In this document: piece by piece, positions 87 through 18,520 of the stretch
How positions within the stretch are numbered: the first letter of the stretch is position 1
Layout: each line of letters opens with the position of its first letter
Assembly: GCA_038248345.1 (NCBI GenBank)
Contig: JBBRXO010000001.1
Coordinates: forward strand, 32,001 to 96,000
Origin: Armatimonadota bacterium
GTDB taxonomy: Bacteria; Armatimonadota; Hebobacteria; CAIYQO01
Direction of reading: 5' to 3'
Length of the DNA stretch: 64,000 nt
The notes under the pieces: model-generated
Seen by the model: the letters and a program-made list of their open reading frames with translations, nothing else
Told to the model about the DNA's origin: nothing
Database searches by the model: none
Translations under genes and position numbers: made by a program

Positions 87-1952
87 CTATTTCATTTGCG
101 CAAACCAGGCGGCCAGAGTTACGGCTGGCCAGACGTACATCCAGGTATCCCGCCGCACGGTTACATCGTCTAGATAGCAGGCGAAATATTCATCCAGTCT
201 GGCGATGTCGACGTACGCTGCCAGCCGCTCGCGTTGGGCGGCCAGCGTCGCACGCAACAGTGTTATATCCATGCTCATGGCCCCATCTACATGCGGGGCC
301 ATATCAGCCTTGCCTTTGCGCAATTGTATCGCCGGCGGCAGAATACCATGCAATGCATGACGAATTATATAGCGACTGAAGCCGTTATGGTATTTCTGCT
401 CGGGCGGCATTGCCAGACAGAACTCGACCAATCGTTTATCCCAGAATGGGTAGCGGCCTTCCAACCCAAAATTGGCGCAAACCATATCAAACGATTCAAA
501 GATCATCTGGTAAAAACCCAACGAAAGATCATTGTACTGCGCTTCACGATCAGACCAGACCCGCTGCATCTTCCGGTTGAAATCACTTTTAATCTTACTG
601 ATCTGATAACGCTTGTGCAACTCGTGGCGAATTGGGTATTTGATGCGTTTGCCATGTCCATCCGGGTTATTACTAATTAGCGCGGTAATTATCGGTTTAA
701 AACCCATCTGCCAGGCAAAACGAATGGCGTCTTTACGCCCGGTACCCCACACCGCGTAGGCCTCGCGGTAGAGTGTACGCCATTTCATCCCCAGCGCCAA
801 CTCTACAAGATACTTCTCACCGTGGCCGATTGCGTTATCACCACCGAAACCTTCCAACATCGTGCGAACACCGCAGAAACGTGCCGAAGTATATGTACCT
901 TTATGGAGATATATCGTAGTGCCGTAGTAGGGCTCATCTTGCGCCTGCTGCACATCCCAATATGCTTGATAAGGGCTAATTTCATCCATCGGCACCAGGT
1001 GCGGGTCTATCCCCCCCTGCGCTATGACGGCGTTAATGTACTCACGTTCATCACATTCCGGCAACTTGTCATATACCGCTGAGAAAGTCTGCAGTCCCCT
1101 CCCCTGCCCTTCCTGCTGTAATATATCACGCGCCATGCAGGTGATGGAGGAAGAATCGATCCCCCCGCTTAGTGCAGAGCCCAGCGGATAGATACTGCGA
1201 AGCCGGCACCGCACCGCTTCTGCAAATACCTCGCGGAAAGCGGAGCCATATTCTGCATTTGAGTTGAAGCGAATCTCCCTGCTTGGATCTAATGACCAGT
1301 ATCGCTCAACTTTAATGCCTTCGGAATTAACCGTCAAAGTACTGGCCGCCGGCAACCGATGCAACTGCTGATAGAAGCAGTCCGCTTTATCCTCAAAAAT
1401 ACATAATGACAGATATTGGGTGATCTTTTCTTCATTCAATTCACGGGGAATCTGCGGTAATGCGAGTAATCCGCGCACCTGGGTGGCGAAATAGAATTCG
1501 TCTTGTTGAAAAGCATAGTAGAATGGCTTCACACCGAAATGATCGCGCGCACAAAAAAGCTTATGCTGCCAGCCATCCCAGATTGCAAAAGCGAAGTCTC
1601 CTACCAGATGATCGGCGCATTTAGCTCCCCAGCGAACATAGGACGCCAGGATCAGCGCACTGTCGCTAACACCCTCATCAGTGAGATTCAAGCTACCGAG
1701 TAACTCGTTCCGATTATCAATCCGGGCATCTGCGGTAATTGCCAGCCGTGCTTCCGCATCATAAAAAGGAAGCGTTTCCTGCAGCGACTCTGGAGTTGTA
1801 AAAGACATCTGGTGGCCGAAACCAATTTTCCCATGAAACCAAATGCCGTTGCTATCCGGCCCACGATGCACTAATGCTTCCTGCATCATCTCCAGGTCGC
1901 GATGCAGGATGGGGCGCTCTTTAATATTATAGATGCCGGTTATCGCGGACAT
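87..1952 (-). CDS. Lasso peptide isopeptide-bond-forming cyclase (asparagine synthetase-like, C protein)
   Basis: 621 aa. AsnB-like fold with HRGPD, RDHFGVKPFYY, the ATP-binding SGGIDSS loop and RYPFWDKRLVEF. It starts MSAITG (Ser in place of the glutaminase Cys1). It follows the B2 and B1 genes and overlaps B2. Confidence 0.9.
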   Translation of the reverse strand: MSAITGIYNIKERPILHRDLEMMQEALVHRGPDSNGIWFHGKIGFGHQMSFTTPESLQETLPFYDAEARLAITADARIDNRNELLGSLNLTDEGVSDSALILASYVRWGAKCADHLVGDFAFAIWDGWQHKLFCARDHFGVKPFYYAFQQDEFYFATQVRGLLALPQIPRELNEEKITQYLSLCIFEDKADCFYQQLHRLPAASTLTVNSEGIKVERYWSLDPSREIRFNSNAEYGSAFREVFAEAVRCRLRSIYPLGSALSGGIDSSSITCMARDILQQEGQGRGLQTFSAVYDKLPECDEREYINAVIAQGGIDPHLVPMDEISPYQAYWDVQQAQDEPYYGTTIYLHKGTYTSARFCGVRTMLEGFGGDNAIGHGEKYLVELALGMKWRTLYREAYAVWGTGRKDAIRFAWQMGFKPIITALISNNPDGHGKRIKYPIRHELHKRYQISKIKSDFNRKMQRVWSDREAQYNDLSLGFYQMIFESFDMVCANFGLEGRYPFWDKRLVEFCLAMPPEQKYHNGFSRYIIRHALHGILPPAIQLRKGKADMAPHVDGAMSMDITLLRATLAAQRERLAAYVDIARLDEYFACYLDDVTVRRDTWMYVWPAVTLAAWFAQMK

Positions 1953-2380
1953 GGCTCTCCCAGGGAAATCGGCGGAAAAGAAGTAAACCCGTGGCGTGCA
2001 CTGCCCCCGATAATAATGGTTCCATCACATACTAACCAGGCGTGGGCCAACAGTTTTTTTTCCTGCGGATCTACACCAATAAGCAACTCCGAAGTGTAAC
2101 CAAAATGCCGTAAAAGTATGCCCGCCGCCAACGCCTGCGTGAGGCAAGAGGCATGCGGCACCACCCGGCTGGCAAGTACCACCATGCGGGCGATACGTCC
2201 CGGTTGCGGGCGCGTTGCCAGCGCCTGCTGCTTGTAGGTTACCTTTTTTATCTCCGAGAGATTGCGGTGAAATGGTCTACGATATAAGTTAATACGAACC
2301 TGCCAGACGATTGCGAGCGCCAGAAATAACAAGCCCCAATCCGACTTACTCAGTCGGCGCAAGCGCTGCAGCGGATTCAT
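1940..2380 (-). CDS. Lasso peptide leader peptidase B2 (transglutaminase-like)
   Basis: 146 aa with SCLTQALA (catalytic Cys), IGV and AHAWL (His) motifs; lies between the RRE and cyclase genes. Confidence 0.9.
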   Translation of the reverse strand: MNPLQRLRRLSKSDWGLLFLALAIVWQVRINLYRRPFHRNLSEIKKVTYKQQALATRPQPGRIARMVVLASRVVPHASCLTQALAAGILLRHFGYTSELLIGVDPQEKKLLAHAWLVCDGTIIIGGSARHGFTSFPPISLGEPCPR

Positions 2381-2663
2381 CGTGAACCTCTATCAATTTA
2401 TTCGTATAAAGATGATTCAGCAGCTCCTGCAAATCCTGCAGGCACTGTTCGGGGGTAACATCGAATTCAGCCATGATGGCTTGTTGCATCGCGGCCACAG
2501 TTTTACCTTCTTGAATAAGAGTCCAGGTGATGGCGCCTTCTTGATTCAATCCATAGTAAATCCCGGTGGCCAAGTTCAACATCACTTGCTCGCCGGTGAC
2601 TTCCGCCGATACCAGATCTGTGGTGGTGACAAATTTCGTTTGCAAGGGAAATTCAATTGCCAT
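2346..2663 (-). CDS. PqqD-family RiPP recognition element (lasso B1)
   Basis: VMLNLATGIYYGLNQEGAITWTLI...EFDV...DLQELLNHL is a PqqD pattern. The ATG at 2663 has a GAAGGAG RBS. Confidence 0.9.
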   Translation of the reverse strand: MAIEFPLQTKFVTTTDLVSAEVTGEQVMLNLATGIYYGLNQEGAITWTLIQEGKTVAAMQQAIMAEFDVTPEQCLQDLQELLNHLYTNKLIEVHDESAAALAPTE

Positions 2664-2697
2664 GTTTTGAAACTCCTTCTGTAAAATTACTGATACC

Positions 2698-2726
2698 ATT
2701 TTACACTAGCTAGAAGGGAAAAACAA
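2698..2726 (-). promoter_or_regulatory. Sigma70-type promoter for the lasso B1-B2-C operon
   Basis: Minus strand: TTGTTT (2726-2721), 17-nt spacer, TAAAAT (2703-2698), about 35 nt upstream of the B1 start. Confidence 0.55.
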
Positions 2727-9349: not shown

Positions 9350-11224
<1,875 letters not shown>

Positions 11225-11275
11225 CCAGGACGAGGGACTTAGACCAGCTTAATCAGGCGCTGCGTCAGGCATTAT

Positions 11276-11305
11276 AAAAGACCGGGATAAATGCCCGGTC
11301 TTTTT
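11276..11305 (+). terminator. Intrinsic terminator after ftsH
   Basis: AAAAGACCGGG...CCCGGTCTTTTT hairpin with a T tail. Confidence 0.75.
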
Positions 11306-11404
11306 CCTTAGCTCATGTTCACATTAAGCTAATATTCGCTAGCTAGCACGCCTTGCATTTGCTATACTATAGTCACAGATTTCTATCAATAGTTGAGAGC
11401 TGAT

Positions 11405-12175
11405 ATGCCTGAGTTTGATCTCACAAATTTTTCTACCGAAGAACGTGCACAAATTGCGTTGCTGGAACCGGAACGCATGCCACAGCATATTGCCGTCATC
11501 ATGGATGGCAATGGCCGCTGGGCCACGCGGCAGGGTCTCCCACGTGTCTTTGGTCACTCGGCAGGGGTAGAAAGTGTGCGGGCAATGTTCAATGCCTGTG
11601 ACGATCTGGGCATCCGATATATTACCCTCTACAGCTTCTCCACCGAAAACTGGTCACGTCCCGCTGATGAAATTGACGCGCTGATGAATCTGATTGATAT
11701 GCAGATGCGCTCCGAAGCGGAACATCTGCACCGCAAAAATGCACGTATCCGTCAACTAGGGCGAGTGGAAGGTTTGCCGGACATGCTGGTGGAGACGCTC
11801 CGCTATATTGAGGAGCTGACGAGCCAAAATACCGGTATCACTATTCAGTTCGCAATTAATTACAGCGGACGTGCTGAATTGCTCGATGCGGCGAAGAAGC
11901 TCACTCGTGCAGTAATTGCGGGCGAAGTAAATCCGGAGACACTGTCCGAGGAAGACCTGGCCGCAGCGCTCTACCGACCTGATGTGCCCGATCCTGATCT
12001 GGTGATCCGCACCGCCGGGGAGATGCGCGTGAGCAACTATCTGCTCTGGCAGATTGCATATTCTGAATTCTGGGTAACTCCGCTCTTCTGGCCGGAGTTC
12101 CGCGCACCACACCTGCTGGAAGCGTTGCTGAATTACCAGCAACGCAAGAGGAAATTCGGGGGAATATCAGCCTGA
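11405..12175 (+). CDS. uppS: Undecaprenyl diphosphate synthase (isoprenyl transferase)
   Basis: HIAVIMDGNGRWA, YSFSTENW and PDLVIRTAGEMRVSNYLLWQ motifs. Confidence 0.95.
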   Translation: MPEFDLTNFSTEERAQIALLEPERMPQHIAVIMDGNGRWATRQGLPRVFGHSAGVESVRAMFNACDDLGIRYITLYSFSTENWSRPADEIDALMNLIDMQMRSEAEHLHRKNARIRQLGRVEGLPDMLVETLRYIEELTSQNTGITIQFAINYSGRAELLDAAKKLTRAVIAGEVNPETLSEEDLAAALYRPDVPDPDLVIRTAGEMRVSNYLLWQIAYSEFWVTPLFWPEFRAPHLLEALLNYQQRKRKFGGISA

Positions 12176-13089
12176 TGCTCCGTAAACGAATTGTGGCCGC
12201 CTTGTTTGGCTTGCCGTTAATCTTTGTTTCGCTCTACTTTAATTTCTACCTGCGTGCGCACGGTAGTGTCGATGACTGGCCCCTTTTCGTCATCCTGATG
12301 GTTATTGGCGGCGCTAGCAGCTGGGAAGTTGCCAATGTAGTGCGCAACCGCTTCCCCGGCGCCAGCCTGTGGAATGGCCTCTATACGGCACTCCTCATCC
12401 CCTTCGTCGTCCACGCTATACGAGTACCGGAGGTATTCCCCGGAATTGTCGCAACCAACACCTCCCTCAGCGGCGCGGCAATACTAGTTGATTCTCTCGG
12501 CGCTACCGCAATGATCATGCTGCTTTTCCTCGGTGTCTGGGGTGATATTGAAAACCGTGGTAAAGATGGCATCAAAGAAAACCTGTGGATCATCAGCGGC
12601 GGGCTTTATATTGGCATTAACATATCGTTTATTCTGCTATTACAAGGGATGCTCTACCATGAACTCGGTGTAGCGATGCTCTTCATACTCGTCTTCGGGC
12701 TAGATACTGCAGCCTATTTCGTGGGCAAGCGGTTTGGTGGAATTAAACTATTCCCGAAATTAAGCCCGAAGAAAACTGTGGCGGGCGCGGTAGGCGGATT
12801 GATATTCGCGACGCTGATAGCATCGTTATTCCCCTTAATTCCGGCGATTGAGCGCTATGTACCCGCTTTTTCCATGCATATCAATTGGCCGCAAGCAATG
12901 CTCATCGGGGTAATCATCGGCATTATCGGGCAAGTAGGTGATCTGCTTGAATCGCTTTTCAAACGCTGGGGCGGGGTAAAGGACAGCGGCGCCGCTCTAC
13001 CCGGTCATGGTGGCTATCTGGATCGTTTTGATAGCCTCTTCCTGGCAGCTCCGGTATGCTATTTTCTTTTCATGGGGTTGGTCAAATAG
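12175..13089 (+). CDS. cdsA: Phosphatidate cytidylyltransferase
   Basis: SPKKT and GDLLESLFKRWGGVKDSG...PGHGGYLDRFDS motifs; TGATG overlap with uppS. Confidence 0.93.
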   Translation: MLRKRIVAALFGLPLIFVSLYFNFYLRAHGSVDDWPLFVILMVIGGASSWEVANVVRNRFPGASLWNGLYTALLIPFVVHAIRVPEVFPGIVATNTSLSGAAILVDSLGATAMIMLLFLGVWGDIENRGKDGIKENLWIISGGLYIGINISFILLLQGMLYHELGVAMLFILVFGLDTAAYFVGKRFGGIKLFPKLSPKKTVAGAVGGLIFATLIASLFPLIPAIERYVPAFSMHINWPQAMLIGVIIGIIGQVGDLLESLFKRWGGVKDSGAALPGHGGYLDRFDSLFLAAPVCYFLFMGLVK

Positions 13090-13126
13090 CATCTACTCTA
13101 CAATAATCCTGCAAAGGGGCAATGAC

Positions 13127-13858
13127 ATGGCATTATGCGAGATGAAATATAACAGCAGTTCGCTGCAGAAACAAACTGGGATGTACGTGGTCATCCCCGA
13201 CGGGCAAGGACCATTCCGCGTTGTCTATCAACTGCATGGCCTCTCGGATGATTACAGCATGTGGTTACGGCGCACTAATATTGAGCGCTATGCCGAGAAT
13301 TACGGTTTAATGGTGGTCATGCCCGACGGCGGGCGTTCCTTCTATTCAGATATGGTAAACGGCACTGGCAACTATGAACAGCATATGCTGGAAACAGTGC
13401 AACTTGTTGACCGCATCTTCCCCACCGTAGCTGATGCCAGCGGACGCGCTATTGGCGGTCTCTCTATGGGTGGCTACGGTTGCATGAAGCTCGGTCTGAA
13501 ATACCCTGAAATCTTCAGTTCTATCGCTTCCCATTCCGGCGTATTGGATTTGAAGATGAATGAGGCCAAAGGCTTCGGCTGGGAGTTCAACGCCATCTTC
13601 GGCGAGAAACTTAGCGCGGAAAATGATTGTATGGCGTTGGCGGCACGGCCAACGGTGAAGCCGGCGATCTACTTTGATTGCGGGGTAGATGATTTCCTGA
13701 TCGAGAATAATCGCATTTTCCACAAAGAATTACTTAAGTTAAAGATCGAACACACATACCATGAATATCCCGGCGCTCACGAATGGGATTTCTGGGATAC
13801 GCATGTGCAGGAGGCATTCGCCTTCCACCTGGAACACCTGGGGAAAGTCACGGAATAA
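13127..13858 (+). CDS. Alpha/beta hydrolase, putative esterase (tributyrin esterase/FrmB-like family)
   Basis: LHGLSD, nucleophile GLSMGG, DCGVDD and GAHEW motifs. Confidence 0.85.
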   Translation: MALCEMKYNSSSLQKQTGMYVVIPDGQGPFRVVYQLHGLSDDYSMWLRRTNIERYAENYGLMVVMPDGGRSFYSDMVNGTGNYEQHMLETVQLVDRIFPTVADASGRAIGGLSMGGYGCMKLGLKYPEIFSSIASHSGVLDLKMNEAKGFGWEFNAIFGEKLSAENDCMALAARPTVKPAIYFDCGVDDFLIENNRIFHKELLKLKIEHTYHEYPGAHEWDFWDTHVQEAFAFHLEHLGKVTE

Positions 13859-13860
13859 CC

Positions 13861-14823
13861 ATGGGCAATAAACGCGCCATCGACTGGACACTGGCGGACA
13901 TCAAAGCGCTCCTGTCATCCAAGGAACAGGAGAACCTGATGCTGGAGTATAAATCCTCGCTGGCGATCGGTGAATGGACGGACTCCAAGCGCGATGAACT
14001 AGCGAAAGACCTGTGCGCCTTCGCCAACTCCGCGGGCGGCATCATCGTCATCGGAATCTGCGAAGAGAACCATCGCCCGGCGATAATCGACAGCGGCGTG
14101 GACACCTCCAAAGCCAGTAAAGAGGCAGTAGAATCGGCGCTGCAGGCGCGCATATCGCCACGCATTGATGACCTGACTATCAAAGAGATTCCTAACCCCG
14201 AAGCACCCGGCTTCTCGTACTATGTCTTTGGGATACCGCGCAGTCTGCGTGCCCCGCATATGTGCAACTCGTTCCACCGCTACTACAAACGCTATAACTT
14301 CGAGTGTGTGCCGATGGAACACTACGAGGTGGAGGATGTGCGCCGCCGTCAAAGTGAACCCGCGCTGAACTTCACCTGGGAGTGTCGCCACGAAACGTTA
14401 CCCAGCGGTGAGGAGATCGCCGCACTCTATGCCGGAGTGCATAATATGGGCAGCGTCACCGCGCAGGACGTACTGGTGCGCCTCTACCTGCCCCGCTGGG
14501 CGGTGCAGGATCATAACTGGGAGGCTGATGGCGTGTCACAGCACCAGGAGACCAGTTACGAAGGCATCGCCATGCACCGCTACGATGTTTATTTGCGTGA
14601 CAGCGCCGGCCCCATCCCCATCTTCCCCCACGACGACCAACCATACCTGATCACCTTCGATCCCACCTGGAACCGCCGCAACTTGCAACTGGTGAATCCA
14701 GCAAAAGCAGGGGGTGCCGACCACCCCGGCACCCACATGATAATACAACTCTTCGCCGTGAACATGCGTATGAAGCGCATAGAAATCCCCCTGACGGCAG
14801 TATGGAGTAGGAAACAACGGTAG
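13861..14823 (+). CDS. Schlafen/AlbA_2-domain protein with a beta-rich (Ig-like) C-terminal domain
   Basis: ENLMLEYK (ExxxxExK), KDLCAFANSAGGIIVIGI and PHM...YYKR; C-terminal VHNMGSVTAQDVLVRLYLP. Confidence 0.8.
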   Translation: MGNKRAIDWTLADIKALLSSKEQENLMLEYKSSLAIGEWTDSKRDELAKDLCAFANSAGGIIVIGICEENHRPAIIDSGVDTSKASKEAVESALQARISPRIDDLTIKEIPNPEAPGFSYYVFGIPRSLRAPHMCNSFHRYYKRYNFECVPMEHYEVEDVRRRQSEPALNFTWECRHETLPSGEEIAALYAGVHNMGSVTAQDVLVRLYLPRWAVQDHNWEADGVSQHQETSYEGIAMHRYDVYLRDSAGPIPIFPHDDQPYLITFDPTWNRRNLQLVNPAKAGGADHPGTHMIIQLFAVNMRMKRIEIPLTAVWSRKQR

Positions 14824-14828
14824 GATTC

Positions 14829-15026
14829 CAGGAGTATCGTTTATAGCGCCCGTCCTGTTCGCCCAGCCGTGAACGACTGGGCTAGCGGGCTACGCCGATC
14901 GTCCTTCGGGTGGGGACGATTGCCCTTAACCGTCCCACCCGAATGGTGATCGGCCGAAGGCCCTCCAGCTAGGTCGTTCATGGCCAAGCTAGGGAGGACG
15001 GCTCGTCAATAAAAACGATACTCCTG
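14829..15026. mobile_element. MITE (non-autonomous element, 198 bp)
   Basis: Perfect 14-bp TIRs CAGGAGTATCGTTT / AAACGATACTCCTG. Flanking direct repeat GTAGGATTC (14820-14828) / ATAGGATTC (15027-15035). Nested internal palindrome; no ORF. Confidence 0.8.
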
Positions 15027-15038
15027 ATAGGATTCCCG

Positions 15039-15545
15039 TTATCTCCCCTTATGCGCCTGTGCACATGCTACATACTCGCGTGAGTTCTCAGCAATATGTG
15101 CCTGCTGTTCGGGAGTTAGCTGTTTTAGCACTTTGCCGGGGAGGCCTACTACCAGGCTGCCGGGGGGGATGATCATATTCTCACGCACCAGGGTACCGGC
15201 ACCCACCAGGCTCCCGGCGCCCACCACCGCGCCATTAAGAACAATGGCACCCATACCGATGAGAGCGCCATCTTCGATGGTGCAACCGTGGATTACGGCG
15301 TTGTGACCGATGGTGACATCCGCGCCGATGACACAGGGGATATCGGGATCGACGTGAATGCTGGCGTTCTCCTGCACGTTGCTGCCACGGCCAATGGTAA
15401 TAGTGGCCATATCGCCGCGCACGCAGGCGCCATACCAGATGCTGACATCCTCACCCAGCACCACATCGCCGATGACAGTGGCGGTAGGGGCGACGAAAAC
15501 TGACTCAGGCATCGCCGGAGTAGTGACGTTAAATTTTATGGGCAT
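15039..15545 (-). CDS. Gamma carbonic anhydrase family (hexapeptide repeat) protein
   Basis: VIGDV, VRGD, SNVQEN, TIGHNAVIHGC and IGMGA motifs. Confidence 0.9.
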   Translation of the reverse strand: MPIKFNVTTPAMPESVFVAPTATVIGDVVLGEDVSIWYGACVRGDMATITIGRGSNVQENASIHVDPDIPCVIGADVTIGHNAVIHGCTIEDGALIGMGAIVLNGAVVGAGSLVGAGTLVRENMIIPPGSLVVGLPGKVLKQLTPEQQAHIAENSREYVACAQAHKGR

Positions 15546-15554
15546 GTTTTTACC

Positions 15555-17081
15555 TCAATAATTAAAATTGACGGAGTTGCGCTGAAAGTCTCCCACCCGT
15601 GCGGTGCCGTTTATTATCTCCACATGCCGCCGATCGAGGTGGCGGGCGTCGGGCCAGTCGTTCATCCTATCGTTGGTGATAATTATCGCCCCCAGTCGCC
15701 GGGCTTCTTTAATGAGCGTCTCATCTGCGCTGGTGCCCGCCTCGGTCATGATGATATCACCACGCTCTACGAGTTGCAGGAAGAGGTCGGGATTATCGAT
15801 CTGGTGCGGCAGACTGGCGTCAGCGTAGATGAGCACTGGAAAGTAACCCTCGGCCCAGGCGGACTGCTGCACCTGCCCTAGATATGCCAGTCGCGCCCGC
15901 TTATCTTTATTCATGTTGGCGACGTTGCTCCCATCAATCAGCGCAGGGCGCAACGGGCCGCGCAGCACCGCCTCGGGTATTTGCACTCGCGCCAGCTCTG
16001 CCAATGCTGTGCGCTCCAACGGGGCGGTGAGACGTGTGAGCGCATCACGGATCTCATCCACCACCTTCTGGTTGTTACTGACAAAGGCAGCTTTAACCTG
16101 GCGTAACGGGTAGCTCTTCTTCCCGCGTGTGGTCGGAAGTTCGATTGCCGGTTCCGCTTTCTTTGCCGCTACCTTCACTACTGGCGTCACTGCTACAGCA
16201 GCTACTTTTCCACTGGCGGAGGATGACGAAGGTGATACCGACAGCTCTAACCCCCGTTGCAACAGCGCGATAGCTTCGGCCACCACTTTAGCAGCTGCAC
16301 TATTCAACGCTGCTGGTGCAGCAGGCTGTGAAGACTCGGCAACTTTCTTCTCTGCCGCGCGCAGTTGTTTACGCAACTCCTGCGCCTCTTCTTCGGCCTT
16401 CTTCGCGCGGCGCGTCTCTCGTTCCAGCTTCTCCTTGGCAACCTTCGTCGCTTCATTCAGCTTCCGCTGGATCTCCTCACTATGCTTTTCGGCTATTGTG
16501 ATGGCATTTTTCTGTCTATCAATCTCGGTTCGTTGTTTAGCCAGCTGCTGCTGCGTCTCCAGCAGTTGCTTTTGCAACGTGACGATCTGCGCACGAGCGG
16601 CGACATCATTTGCTTGGGACGGTAAAGATGAAAAAACAGGTTTTTTTACTAGCGGCGCTGCCGATATAACTTTCACCTTATCCAGCTTTTCTGCCCAGAT
16701 GACCACCTCATCGCGAGCGTCACAAAGAAGTGCAAAACGTAGCGTCGCCTCACCATGTTCGGTAGCTAATGCTGACAACGATTCCCCGTCGACGATAAAT
16801 TCGTCAGACTCCAGCGTCGCCAAGAGATCAACATTGGCTTCATCCCAAATCTTCCGCAACTCCTGTGCCATCTCCGGTAATTTTCCGAGTTCCTGCTTCA
16901 GGCGCGTGCGAATCACCGGATTCTTCAGCGAGTTATCCCGTACTGTGAAACCGTGGAATATTGTTTGGGCGAAGAGAGCATCACCCTTGATGAACTCCAG
17001 CAACACCCGCGGAGGCAGGCTATCGAGGAGCGCGGTAATCTGGGCAGGAGTCATCTTATCGGCATTGGCATCTGCATTCAT
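15555..17081 (-). CDS. Coiled-coil protein with a C-terminal NYN/PIN (Zc3h12a-like) ribonuclease domain
   Basis: Long Q/E/K coiled coil; C-terminal ALIDGSNVA, ADASL, ADETLI and IITNDRMND acidic motifs. Confidence 0.75.
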   Translation of the reverse strand: MNADANADKMTPAQITALLDSLPPRVLLEFIKGDALFAQTIFHGFTVRDNSLKNPVIRTRLKQELGKLPEMAQELRKIWDEANVDLLATLESDEFIVDGESLSALATEHGEATLRFALLCDARDEVVIWAEKLDKVKVISAAPLVKKPVFSSLPSQANDVAARAQIVTLQKQLLETQQQLAKQRTEIDRQKNAITIAEKHSEEIQRKLNEATKVAKEKLERETRRAKKAEEEAQELRKQLRAAEKKVAESSQPAAPAALNSAAAKVVAEAIALLQRGLELSVSPSSSSASGKVAAVAVTPVVKVAAKKAEPAIELPTTRGKKSYPLRQVKAAFVSNNQKVVDEIRDALTRLTAPLERTALAELARVQIPEAVLRGPLRPALIDGSNVANMNKDKRARLAYLGQVQQSAWAEGYFPVLIYADASLPHQIDNPDLFLQLVERGDIIMTEAGTSADETLIKEARRLGAIIITNDRMNDWPDARHLDRRHVEIINGTARVGDFQRNSVNFNY

Positions 17082-18097: not shown

Positions 18098-18520
18098 GTC
18101 TTTAGGACGGAGTTATAATGTCGTCATTCAAAGAATTGCTGGTTTGGAAGCAGGCGATTTGATTAGCCAAAGAGTGCTATATATTTACACGCACATTTCC
18201 CAAAGAAGAATTGTATGGTATGACCAGTCAAATCCGCCGAGCTGCAGTTTCAATTCCGGCCAACATTGCCGAGGGTAGCGCCAGAGGGACGCAGAAGGAT
18301 TTCGCTCAATTTCTTCATATAGCGCAAGGTAGCCTCCGAGAATTAGAAACACACTTGCTACTCTGTATTGAGATAGAGTTAGTCAAAAAAGAATGTCTCA
18401 TCCAAATATTTGAGCATATTGAATCTGTATCGATATTACTTCGAAAATTAATCAATTCAACACAAAAGTAGGTCTGTTCGCAACTAAAATCGCGAACAGA
18501 CCTAAAGACCTAAAGACCTA
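18093..18520. repeat. Inverted 8-mer tandem arrays flanking the four-helix bundle gene
   Basis: TTTAGGTC-TTTAGGAC upstream (18093-18108); GACCTAAA x2 plus GACCTA downstream (18499-18520); perfect 13-bp hairpin at 18469-18504. Confidence 0.75.
18118..18471 (+). pseudogene. Four-helix bundle protein (23S rRNA IVP / Avd-like family) with an in-frame TGA at codon 15
   Basis: MSSFKELLVWKQAI*LAKECY...FPKEELYGMTSQIRRAAVSIPANIAEG...IAQGSLRELETHL; GGAG RBS; TGA at 18160-18162. Confidence 0.8.

Follow-up and report, generated by a model that had tools for sequence, protein, structure and literature searches.

The 64,000-nucleotide (nt) stretch of Armatimonadota DNA analysed here (contig JBBRXO010000001.1, positions 32,001 to 96,000; hereafter the window) carries, at 13861..14823 on the + strand, a gene for a 320-amino acid (aa) protein, P0001, in which a Schlafen nuclease domain is followed by a predicted immunoglobulin (Ig)-like beta-sandwich. 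By sequence comparison, P0001 is a member of a widespread family of Schlafen (Slfn) and Ig-like fusion proteins that takes in the proteins published as class pSlfn5. We lean towards the interpretation, drawn from this homology, that P0001 works like the published pSlfn5 proteins, as a phage-triggered tRNase. New with respect to the published class are the restriction of the P0001 clade to one bacterial family, its link to an esterase gene, its sparse defence-type neighbours, its dispensability and the occurrence of its C-terminal domain (C-domain) in a TIR fusion.

Nuclease domain of P0001

The frame +1 open reading frame (ORF) spans 13783-14823, and the ATG at 13861 yields the 320-aa protein, with a TAG stop codon at 14821-14823. 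In A1, which aligns 41 sequences at a mean column identity of 68%, the N-terminus given by this ATG lines up with the starts of all orthologues. The gene is present as a single copy, as P0001 used as a query matched only its own gene in its own genome. SLFN_AlbA_2 is the sole Pfam domain identified in P0001 (PF04326, residues 24-152, 13930..14316, + strand), with a match to profile positions 1-117 of 118 (E value 3.8e-15, 56.9 bits against a gathering cut-off of 25.3). Pfam detected no ATPase, in agreement with a preliminary description of this locus, and no other domain.

The same description had reported an intact ExxxxExK motif (ENLMLEYK), which we locate at residues 24-31 (13930..13953, + strand) and which is the predicted catalytic motif, E24-x4-E29-x-K31. 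In A1, E24 is found in 39 of the 39 sequences covering that column, position 29 is acidic in all 41 (26 E, 15 D), and Y30 and K31 are each present in 41 of 41. Because E24, E/D29, Y30 and K31 are kept throughout the orthologues, the motif is not a chance occurrence. E-x4-(E/D)-x-K is reported to be catalytic in both pSlfn proteins and SLFN11 in the pSlfn study by Perez Taboada et al. (Nat Microbiol 2026; PMC13056530). A KD..AFANSAGG motif, also noted previously, is present as KDLCAFANSAGG at residues 49-60 (14005..14040, + strand); A53, F54, A55, N56, G59 and G60 are invariant in the 41 sequences, and a PDB profile search aligns this stretch with Schlafen 8 and SLFN5 chains.

An AlphaFold2 (AF2) model of P0001 built on A1 has a mean predicted local distance difference test score (pLDDT) of 77.3, with weak parts at residues 26-36 and 131-156. 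When residues 1-137 of the model were compared with Schlafen N-domains using VIA-align, the Z values were 7.9 (7fex, SLFN11), 7.8 (7lrd, SLFN12), 7.7 (7zel) and 7.5 (7q3z, SLFN5), all four over 120-125 residues with a root mean square deviation of 3.2 A. Z values between 7.5 and 8.2, the range obtained for both domains of P0001, are "middling" on the scale of this tool. Those of the nuclease domain back the hidden Markov model (HMM) match rather than standing alone; for the predicted structure, the values show a Schlafen-like lobe and an Ig-like sandwich with no specific subfamily.

The most conserved segment of the protein is residues 127-163 (RSLRAPHMC...YKRYNFECVPMEHYEVEDVRRR; 14239..14349, + strand), which comprises the end of the nuclease domain and a linker helix. 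Its mean column conservation (0.93) is the highest in the P0001 family, it includes an invariant H133 and a near-invariant C135, and it is also conserved in the distant family alignment A4 (described below). Despite this conservation, residues 131-156 fall below a pLDDT of 50 and are the least confident part of the AF2 model. We speculate that the segment might be ordered solely in an oligomer or on the substrate.

Predicted C-terminal Ig-like domain

Residues 167-320 (14359..14820, + strand) form the predicted sensor. This region is all-beta in the AF2 model, with 10-residue block means of 69-95 that are mostly near 90. A Foldseek search of the PDB gave integrin alpha ectodomains as the top matches (E 4.4e-4 to approximately 1e-3), followed by a cohesin, ApaG and other Ig-like sandwiches (E up to 2e-3). 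VIA-align gave Z values of 8.0-8.2 to the receptor-binding domains of complement C3 and alpha-2-macroglobulin and to other beta-sandwiches. The model predicts a beta-sandwich with confidence, and its best structural matches are to Ig-like domains.

The preliminary description had proposed an Ig-like C-terminus on the basis of an N-x-G-x3-A-x2-V-x-V-x-L pattern, which is present as N195-M-G-S-V-T-A-Q-D-V-L-V-R-L208. Its structural inference was right and matches the published class: the model predicts an Ig-like sandwich and not a helix-turn-helix (HTH) or other non-Ig fold. The beta-rich character that it assigned to the C-terminus stands, with the size revised from approximately 130 aa to approximately 155 aa. 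The sensor domain had been called unassigned; this no longer holds, as the combination of a Schlafen domain with an Ig-like domain is that of pSlfn5 in PMC13056530, which lists a homologous member.

The two domains differ in conservation. Mean pairwise identity within the clade is 76% for the nuclease domain versus 57.5% for the C-domain (820 pairs), and column conservation in the wide family is 0.63 versus 0.26. Within the C-domain the pattern is a mosaic, with conserved segments at residues 191-211, 240-262 and 294-305 (0.83-0.86) and variable segments at residues 164-190, 212-239 and 263-293 (0.52-0.61). A word search with residues 163-320 returned orthologues only. In the ESM Atlas, the best cluster for the C-domain (0.91) has no family and one cluster bearing PF04326 scored 0.81; we treat these as leads only.

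Relationship to the published pSlfn5 class

Perez Taboada et al. describe 5,930 prokaryotic Schlafen proteins with 55 architectures (PMC13056530). Class pSlfn5, the fusions to Ig-like domains, accounts for 3.9% of them, with 232 members and a defence score of 0.69. In that account, Escherichia coli is protected against T5 by RorSlfn5 from Raoultella ornithinolytica. The Ig-like domain of RorSlfn5 is similar to integrin ectodomains and binds the tail assembly chaperone of T5, and this binding leads to Mn-dependent cleavage of tRNA anticodon arms. Swaps of the Ig-like domain between orthologues transfer trigger specificity, conservation in pSlfn proteins is higher in the nuclease domain than in the sensor, RorSlfn5 is reported to be mainly a hexamer, and pSlfn5 proteins act as single genes (PMC13056530).

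A word-indexed search of 5.8 billion proteins with P0001 yielded 951 candidates, and 72 of them matched at E <= 0.001. The matches include 40 full-length orthologues (P0002-P0041) with 53-64% identity over 88-100% of P0001, and the few that are named derive from Armatimonadota metagenome-assembled genomes. At E <= 0.001, an HMMER scan of 1.84 billion cluster representatives matched 6724 proteins, of which 1872 also pass E <= 1e-10; most among the best 150 of the 6724 are approximately 300-340 aa in length and match over their N-terminal 160-270 residues. Alignment A4 consists of 37 distant relatives of approximately 300-350 aa; loci in other phyla contributed 14 of these and the metagenome protein search the other 23. 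A1 aligns with A4 from end to end in hhalign (probability 100%, 299 columns), and an alignment of the C-domain alone (A2) aligns with the C-terminal part of A4 (98.5%, E 3.4e-15, 146 columns).

A tblastn search with P0001 matched 53 plasmid records, none covering 80% of the query; one of these matches (H10) is a listed pSlfn5 member, given in Supplementary Table 2 of PMC13056530 as NZ_CP036124.1 87047-88036 from a Bacillus mycoides plasmid. The ORF at this position (L087) matches P0001 by BLASTP (E 1e-14) and A1 by hhalign (96.8%, E 2.5e-10, 187 columns, A1 columns 13-206). The latter alignment crosses the linker and ends after the first C-domain strands, so that the remaining C-domain is linked only via A4 as an intermediate, with which L087 aligns at 98.9%. 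Because A1, A2 and the listed pSlfn5 protein all align with A4, P0001 is placed in the wide family, and its pSlfn5 membership is supported by the Slfn and Ig-like architecture together with homology to a listed member.

Distribution and dispensability

When 301 genomes of the phylum were searched with A1, 31 had some match at E <= 1e-5. Full-length matches are confined to the family of the window, where they occur in its own genome and six of 11 others (7/12). The A2 profile matched eight of 401 phylum genomes, all in the same family, with seven Slfn fusions and one TIR fusion. The searches did not recover the Slfn gene from G133 (99% complete), G196 (96%), G228 (89%) or G187 (77%, same genus as the window), nor the Slfn form from G204 (78%), which has the TIR form. 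The strings "Armatimonad", "Fimbriimonas" and "Chthonomonas" do not occur in Supplementary Table 1 of PMC13056530; this table may carry no taxon names, so absence of the clade from the catalogue is not implied.

The gene is therefore not universal at its locus: it was not found in five of 12 family genomes, two of which (G133 and G204) have an empty site between the esterase gene and a phosphodiesterase gene. These empty sites indicate that the Slfn gene is dispensable at a conserved position. The genome of the window also encodes four further full AlbA_2 ORFs of 380-578 aa (L178, L179, L180 and L181 on contigs C25, C6, C89 and C18), whose architectures are probably different, and two short AlbA_2 fragments.

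A TIR protein with the same C-domain

The relative G204 encodes a 358-aa protein, P0219 (L038:4215-5291, - strand), with a TIR_2 domain at residues 18-151 (Pfam E 5.2e-20). Its C-terminal beta-sandwich is homologous to the C-domain of P0001 (hhalign 96.9%, E 1.4e-10, 149 columns), and a P-x-x-I-x-P-x-D-(D/E)-Q loop is common to the two. P0219 differs from P0001 in having a TIR_2 effector instead of a Schlafen nuclease and in being encoded at another locus, adjoining priA. The best PADLOC matches of the TIR part are models of Argonaute-associated TIR proteins (E 2.5e-15). The TIR fusion was found in one of 401 phylum genomes and is the sole non-Slfn protein found with this C-domain; it is also in NCBI under a hypothetical name (P0220), which was the only return from 7996 scored candidates in a longer search with the C-domain alignment.

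These two natural fusions are evidence that the predicted beta-sandwich is a module able to serve different effector domains. More tentatively, and on balance doubtfully, the C-domain may be a portable trigger sensor that in one Armatimonadota family has been wired to two immune effectors, a Schlafen RNase in most members and a TIR NADase-type domain in a genome from which no Slfn form was recovered. The same cue would then lead to tRNA cleavage or to NAD depletion, with the Slfn form held in a housekeeping operon by the esterase throughout the divergence of the family.

Proposed function

If P0001 works as described for pSlfn5 proteins, its Ig-like domain would bind a phage protein, and this binding would switch on Mn-dependent cleavage of tRNA anticodon arms. 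The cleavage would stall translation and lower phage yield.

The distant relatives are often found among defence genes. PADLOC was run on 150 of the 167 ORFs of at least 130 aa at 18 loci, leaving out two loci and part of a third, and gave strong, specific neighbours at seven of the 18, several of them directly adjacent to the Slfn gene. These neighbours are a type IIG restriction-modification enzyme with PDC-S05 and PDC-S04; PD-T7-4 with a type I restriction endonuclease; AriAB; a DUF3800 protein with a type VII retron reverse transcriptase (RT); a UG10-like RT; PDC-S31; and an AbiLi/AriA-like ATPase. The wider Slfn-Ig family is thus often located in defence islands, whereas the clade of the window is not.

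Genomic context and alternative explanations

Several observations weigh against an immune role for P0001 and are gathered here. PADLOC was applied to 69 ORFs, comprising 25 from the window (87-27490), 41 around five orthologues and three at the TIR locus. Most of its matches are at the level of single domains (FtsH to IetA, an AddA-like helicase-nuclease to GajB, response regulators and RelA), the exceptions being an Mrr-like fragment and the TIR protein itself. None of the 25 window ORFs is a specific defence neighbour of the Slfn gene, in line with the preliminary description, which had placed the locus outside a defence island, and the flanking genes are of the housekeeping type (proS-like, ftsH, uppS, cdsA and the AddA-like helicase). 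The Mrr-like fragment, approximately 5.5 kb from the Slfn gene in G083, is the sole restriction-type neighbour over six loci. P0001 itself had no match in PADLOC, whose library (2023) is older than PMC13056530, so that this check speaks only for systems known at that date; it also had no match in 50,697 phage records. The conserved C-domain segments suggest more constraint than would be expected in a fast arms race, and one of their loops, P-I-x-P-x-D-(D/E)-Q, persists in the TIR fusion as well. RNase activity, tRNA as substrate, metal dependence, activation by a trigger, oligomerization and any effect on phages are properties that we would attribute to P0001 by homology.

The remaining points concern inheritance. 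A PF00756 esterase gene (13124..13858, + strand, Pfam E 6.4e-24) lies directly upstream of the Slfn gene, preceded by cdsA (12175-13089) and uppS (11393-12175). Its TAA stop codon (13856-13858) is separated by two bases from the Slfn ATG, so that the earlier placement of the gene 2 bp after an esterase at the end of a uppS-cdsA run is borne out by the coordinates. Because of this 2-nt spacing, the Slfn gene is probably co-transcribed with uppS, cdsA and the esterase. In the window and five of six genome relatives, the esterase precedes the Slfn gene on the same strand at a distance of 1-21 nt. It is also upstream in six of eight metagenome contigs with full-length orthologues (the other two have less than 250 nt of upstream sequence, and one of the six is a duplicate of a genome in the count above).

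The esterase-Slfn order is kept across five genera while the outer flanks differ. The order is uppS-cdsA-esterase-Slfn in the window, MraW-TIM-barrel-esterase-Slfn in genus g3 (G083 and G236; G258 shows the last three of these genes), and RelA-esterase-Slfn-phosphodiesterase in G058. In G244 it is DUF480-Slfn-phosphodiesterase-X-ThiG, with no esterase, and in G133 and G204 it is esterase-phosphodiesterase-X-ThiG, with no Slfn gene and approximately 70-95 nt between the esterase and phosphodiesterase genes. We considered uppS and cdsA as part of a unit with the esterase-Slfn pair and rejected this, as they flank the pair in the window only. The phosphodiesterase is a PF01663 type I phosphodiesterase / nucleotide pyrophosphatase, which immediately follows the Slfn gene in G058 and G244 as well as in two metagenome contigs (copies at L035:6296-7537 [- strand], L033:8877-10109 [+ strand], L104 and L105); in the Slfn-less G133 and G204 it directly follows the esterase and marks the shared site.

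Pairwise identities of the Slfn protein and the esterase are correlated (r = 0.90 over 45 non-independent pairs from 10 loci, with means of 65% and 61%), which points to long co-inheritance and not to recent transfer. The clade has apparently been inherited stably and vertically. In its co-divergence with the esterase and its single defence-type neighbour over six loci, the clade behaves unlike a typical defence gene. This co-divergence, the retention of the gene pair across genera with changing flanks, the single defence-type neighbour and the strongly conserved C-domain motifs would all fit a domesticated, non-immune Schlafen: a chromosomally fixed RNase or nucleic-acid binder in a housekeeping operon, with an Ig-like domain that senses a conserved cellular cue such as stress. 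PMC13056530 leaves room for such roles: it places 30.4% of the pSlfn genes away from any defence neighbour and allows non-immune functions for these. We nevertheless regard domestication as unlikely, if a serious alternative. A fixed housekeeping function does not agree well with the five of 12 family genomes in which the gene was not found, three of them 89-99% complete, or with the two empty sites; moreover, the same C-domain is carried by a TIR protein of a defence-associated type, and distant homologues with both domains are in defence islands at seven of 18 loci.

The close spacing of the two genes on the same strand, in genomes and metagenome contigs alike, could also mean that the esterase is a partner in a two-gene system, making or destroying a small-molecule signal or binding the Slfn protein; the variation of the outer flanks by genus would then reflect a pair that moves or persists as a unit. 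The genes are separable, however, since each occurs without the other. Esterase orthologues are present in 10 of the 12 family genomes, including four in which no Slfn gene was found (G133, G196, G204 and G228, 56-58% identity), and in G244 (91% complete), which carries the Slfn gene, a genome search at E <= 1e-20 found no esterase. In the esterase tree, which lacks resolution at its deep nodes, the Slfn-less lineages require two changes in the best topology and one or more if only well-supported branches count, compatible with one loss, two losses or a gain. The link is also specific to the clade, as none of 20 distant Slfn-Ig relatives has this esterase within 6 kb, and published pSlfn5 proteins act on their own (PMC13056530). 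A two-gene system is improbable; most likely, the esterase has long been a neighbour of the Slfn gene without being a system component. Least probable of all, in our estimation, is a catalytically silent AlbA_2 protein acting as a DNA- or RNA-binding regulator. Relatives of P0001 bear database names such as "AlbA family DNA-binding domain-containing protein" and "ATP-binding protein", and the region of the catalytic motif (residues 26-36) is poorly modelled, with a pLDDT below 50. Against this, the acidic and lysine residues of the motif are invariant or conservatively replaced in every orthologue, which argues for selection on catalysis, and P0001 has neither a DNA-binding HTH nor an ATPase domain.

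If the phage-triggered tRNase interpretation is true, the pSlfn5 class extends to the uncultivated phylum Armatimonadota. The clade in its stable operon would be either a defence gene missed by context-based discovery or a Schlafen nuclease recruited to non-immune work. The TIR fusion provides natural evidence of sensor modularity across effector classes, which goes beyond the domain swaps between orthologues in PMC13056530. The locus opens no long-standing question; its esterase-linked vertical context and the TIR fusion are its most noteworthy parts.

Other features of the window

A palindromic repeat element of approximately 200 bp (14824..15038) directly follows the Slfn stop codon and is not part of the gene. 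It has a predicted RNA minimum free energy of -120.8 kcal/mol (z -9.65) and belongs to a genome-wide repeat family, with 65 matches across contigs of the same genome at 68-97% identity. The element matched no Rfam family, looks like a miniature inverted-repeat transposable element (MITE) or repetitive extragenic palindromic (REP) sequence, and may act as a terminator. On L098, an 86%-identical orthologue contig, DNA similarity to the window ends at nt 14805, and the palindrome is therefore absent after that gene. A scan of 11200-15200 gave five promoter-like sites, i.e. the level of shuffled sequence (3.7), and no plus-strand terminator-like site after the Slfn gene. We found no Rfam family in 13000-16000 and no NCBIfam match to P0001. 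The sequencing runs listed for the locus comprise four DNA runs from two studies and no RNA run.

Two genes downstream of the Slfn gene, 15555-17081 (- strand) encodes a protein of 508 aa, whose long, charged middle part resembles a coiled coil and whose C-terminus is an NYN (Zc3h12a-like) RNase domain. The 86-aa product of 18211-18471 (+ strand) belongs to the 23S_rRNA_IVP four-helix family. Neither protein has a PADLOC match. Near the start of the window (87-2699, - strand) is an adjacent trio of asparagine synthase-like, transglutaminase-like core and PqqD genes, which we take to be typical of lasso-peptide biosynthesis.

Comparison with known systems

P0001 shares with human SLFN11, SLFN12, SLFN13 and SLFN5 the fold of the nuclease lobe and the E-x4-E-x-K motif, and its best PDB profile match is Schlafen 8, at a marginal E value of 0.0016. 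The human proteins differ in having two lobes, a linker and helicase domains and in being several times larger. The CRISPR-associated Schlafen Cash (CbCash, PDB 9ylu), to which P0001 has a weak profile match (E 0.061), is likewise a prokaryotic Schlafen tRNase fused to a sensor. This sensor, a Csx15 Rossmann-like domain, binds cA4 and operates within type III CRISPR immunity (PMC13462974), in contrast to the predicted Ig-like domain of P0001; CRISPR genes are also absent near the P0001 gene.

The closest likeness is to pSlfn5 (PMC13056530). The P0001 clade differs from this class in being confined to one Armatimonadota family, in its stable link to and co-divergence with an esterase gene, and in having one defence-type neighbour (the Mrr-like fragment) over six loci, compared to the group defence score of 0.69. 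Mn-dependent tRNA cleavage triggered by a phage protein, with protection against phage, is known for RorSlfn5 only. In common with pSlfn5 proteins, P0001 combines a Schlafen nuclease bearing E-x4-(E/D)-x-K with a predicted Ig-like sandwich similar to integrin ectodomains, in one polypeptide of approximately 320 aa without an ATPase. As in the published class, the nuclease domain of the P0001 family is more conserved than the sensor, and P0001 has detectable sequence homology to a listed pSlfn5 member.

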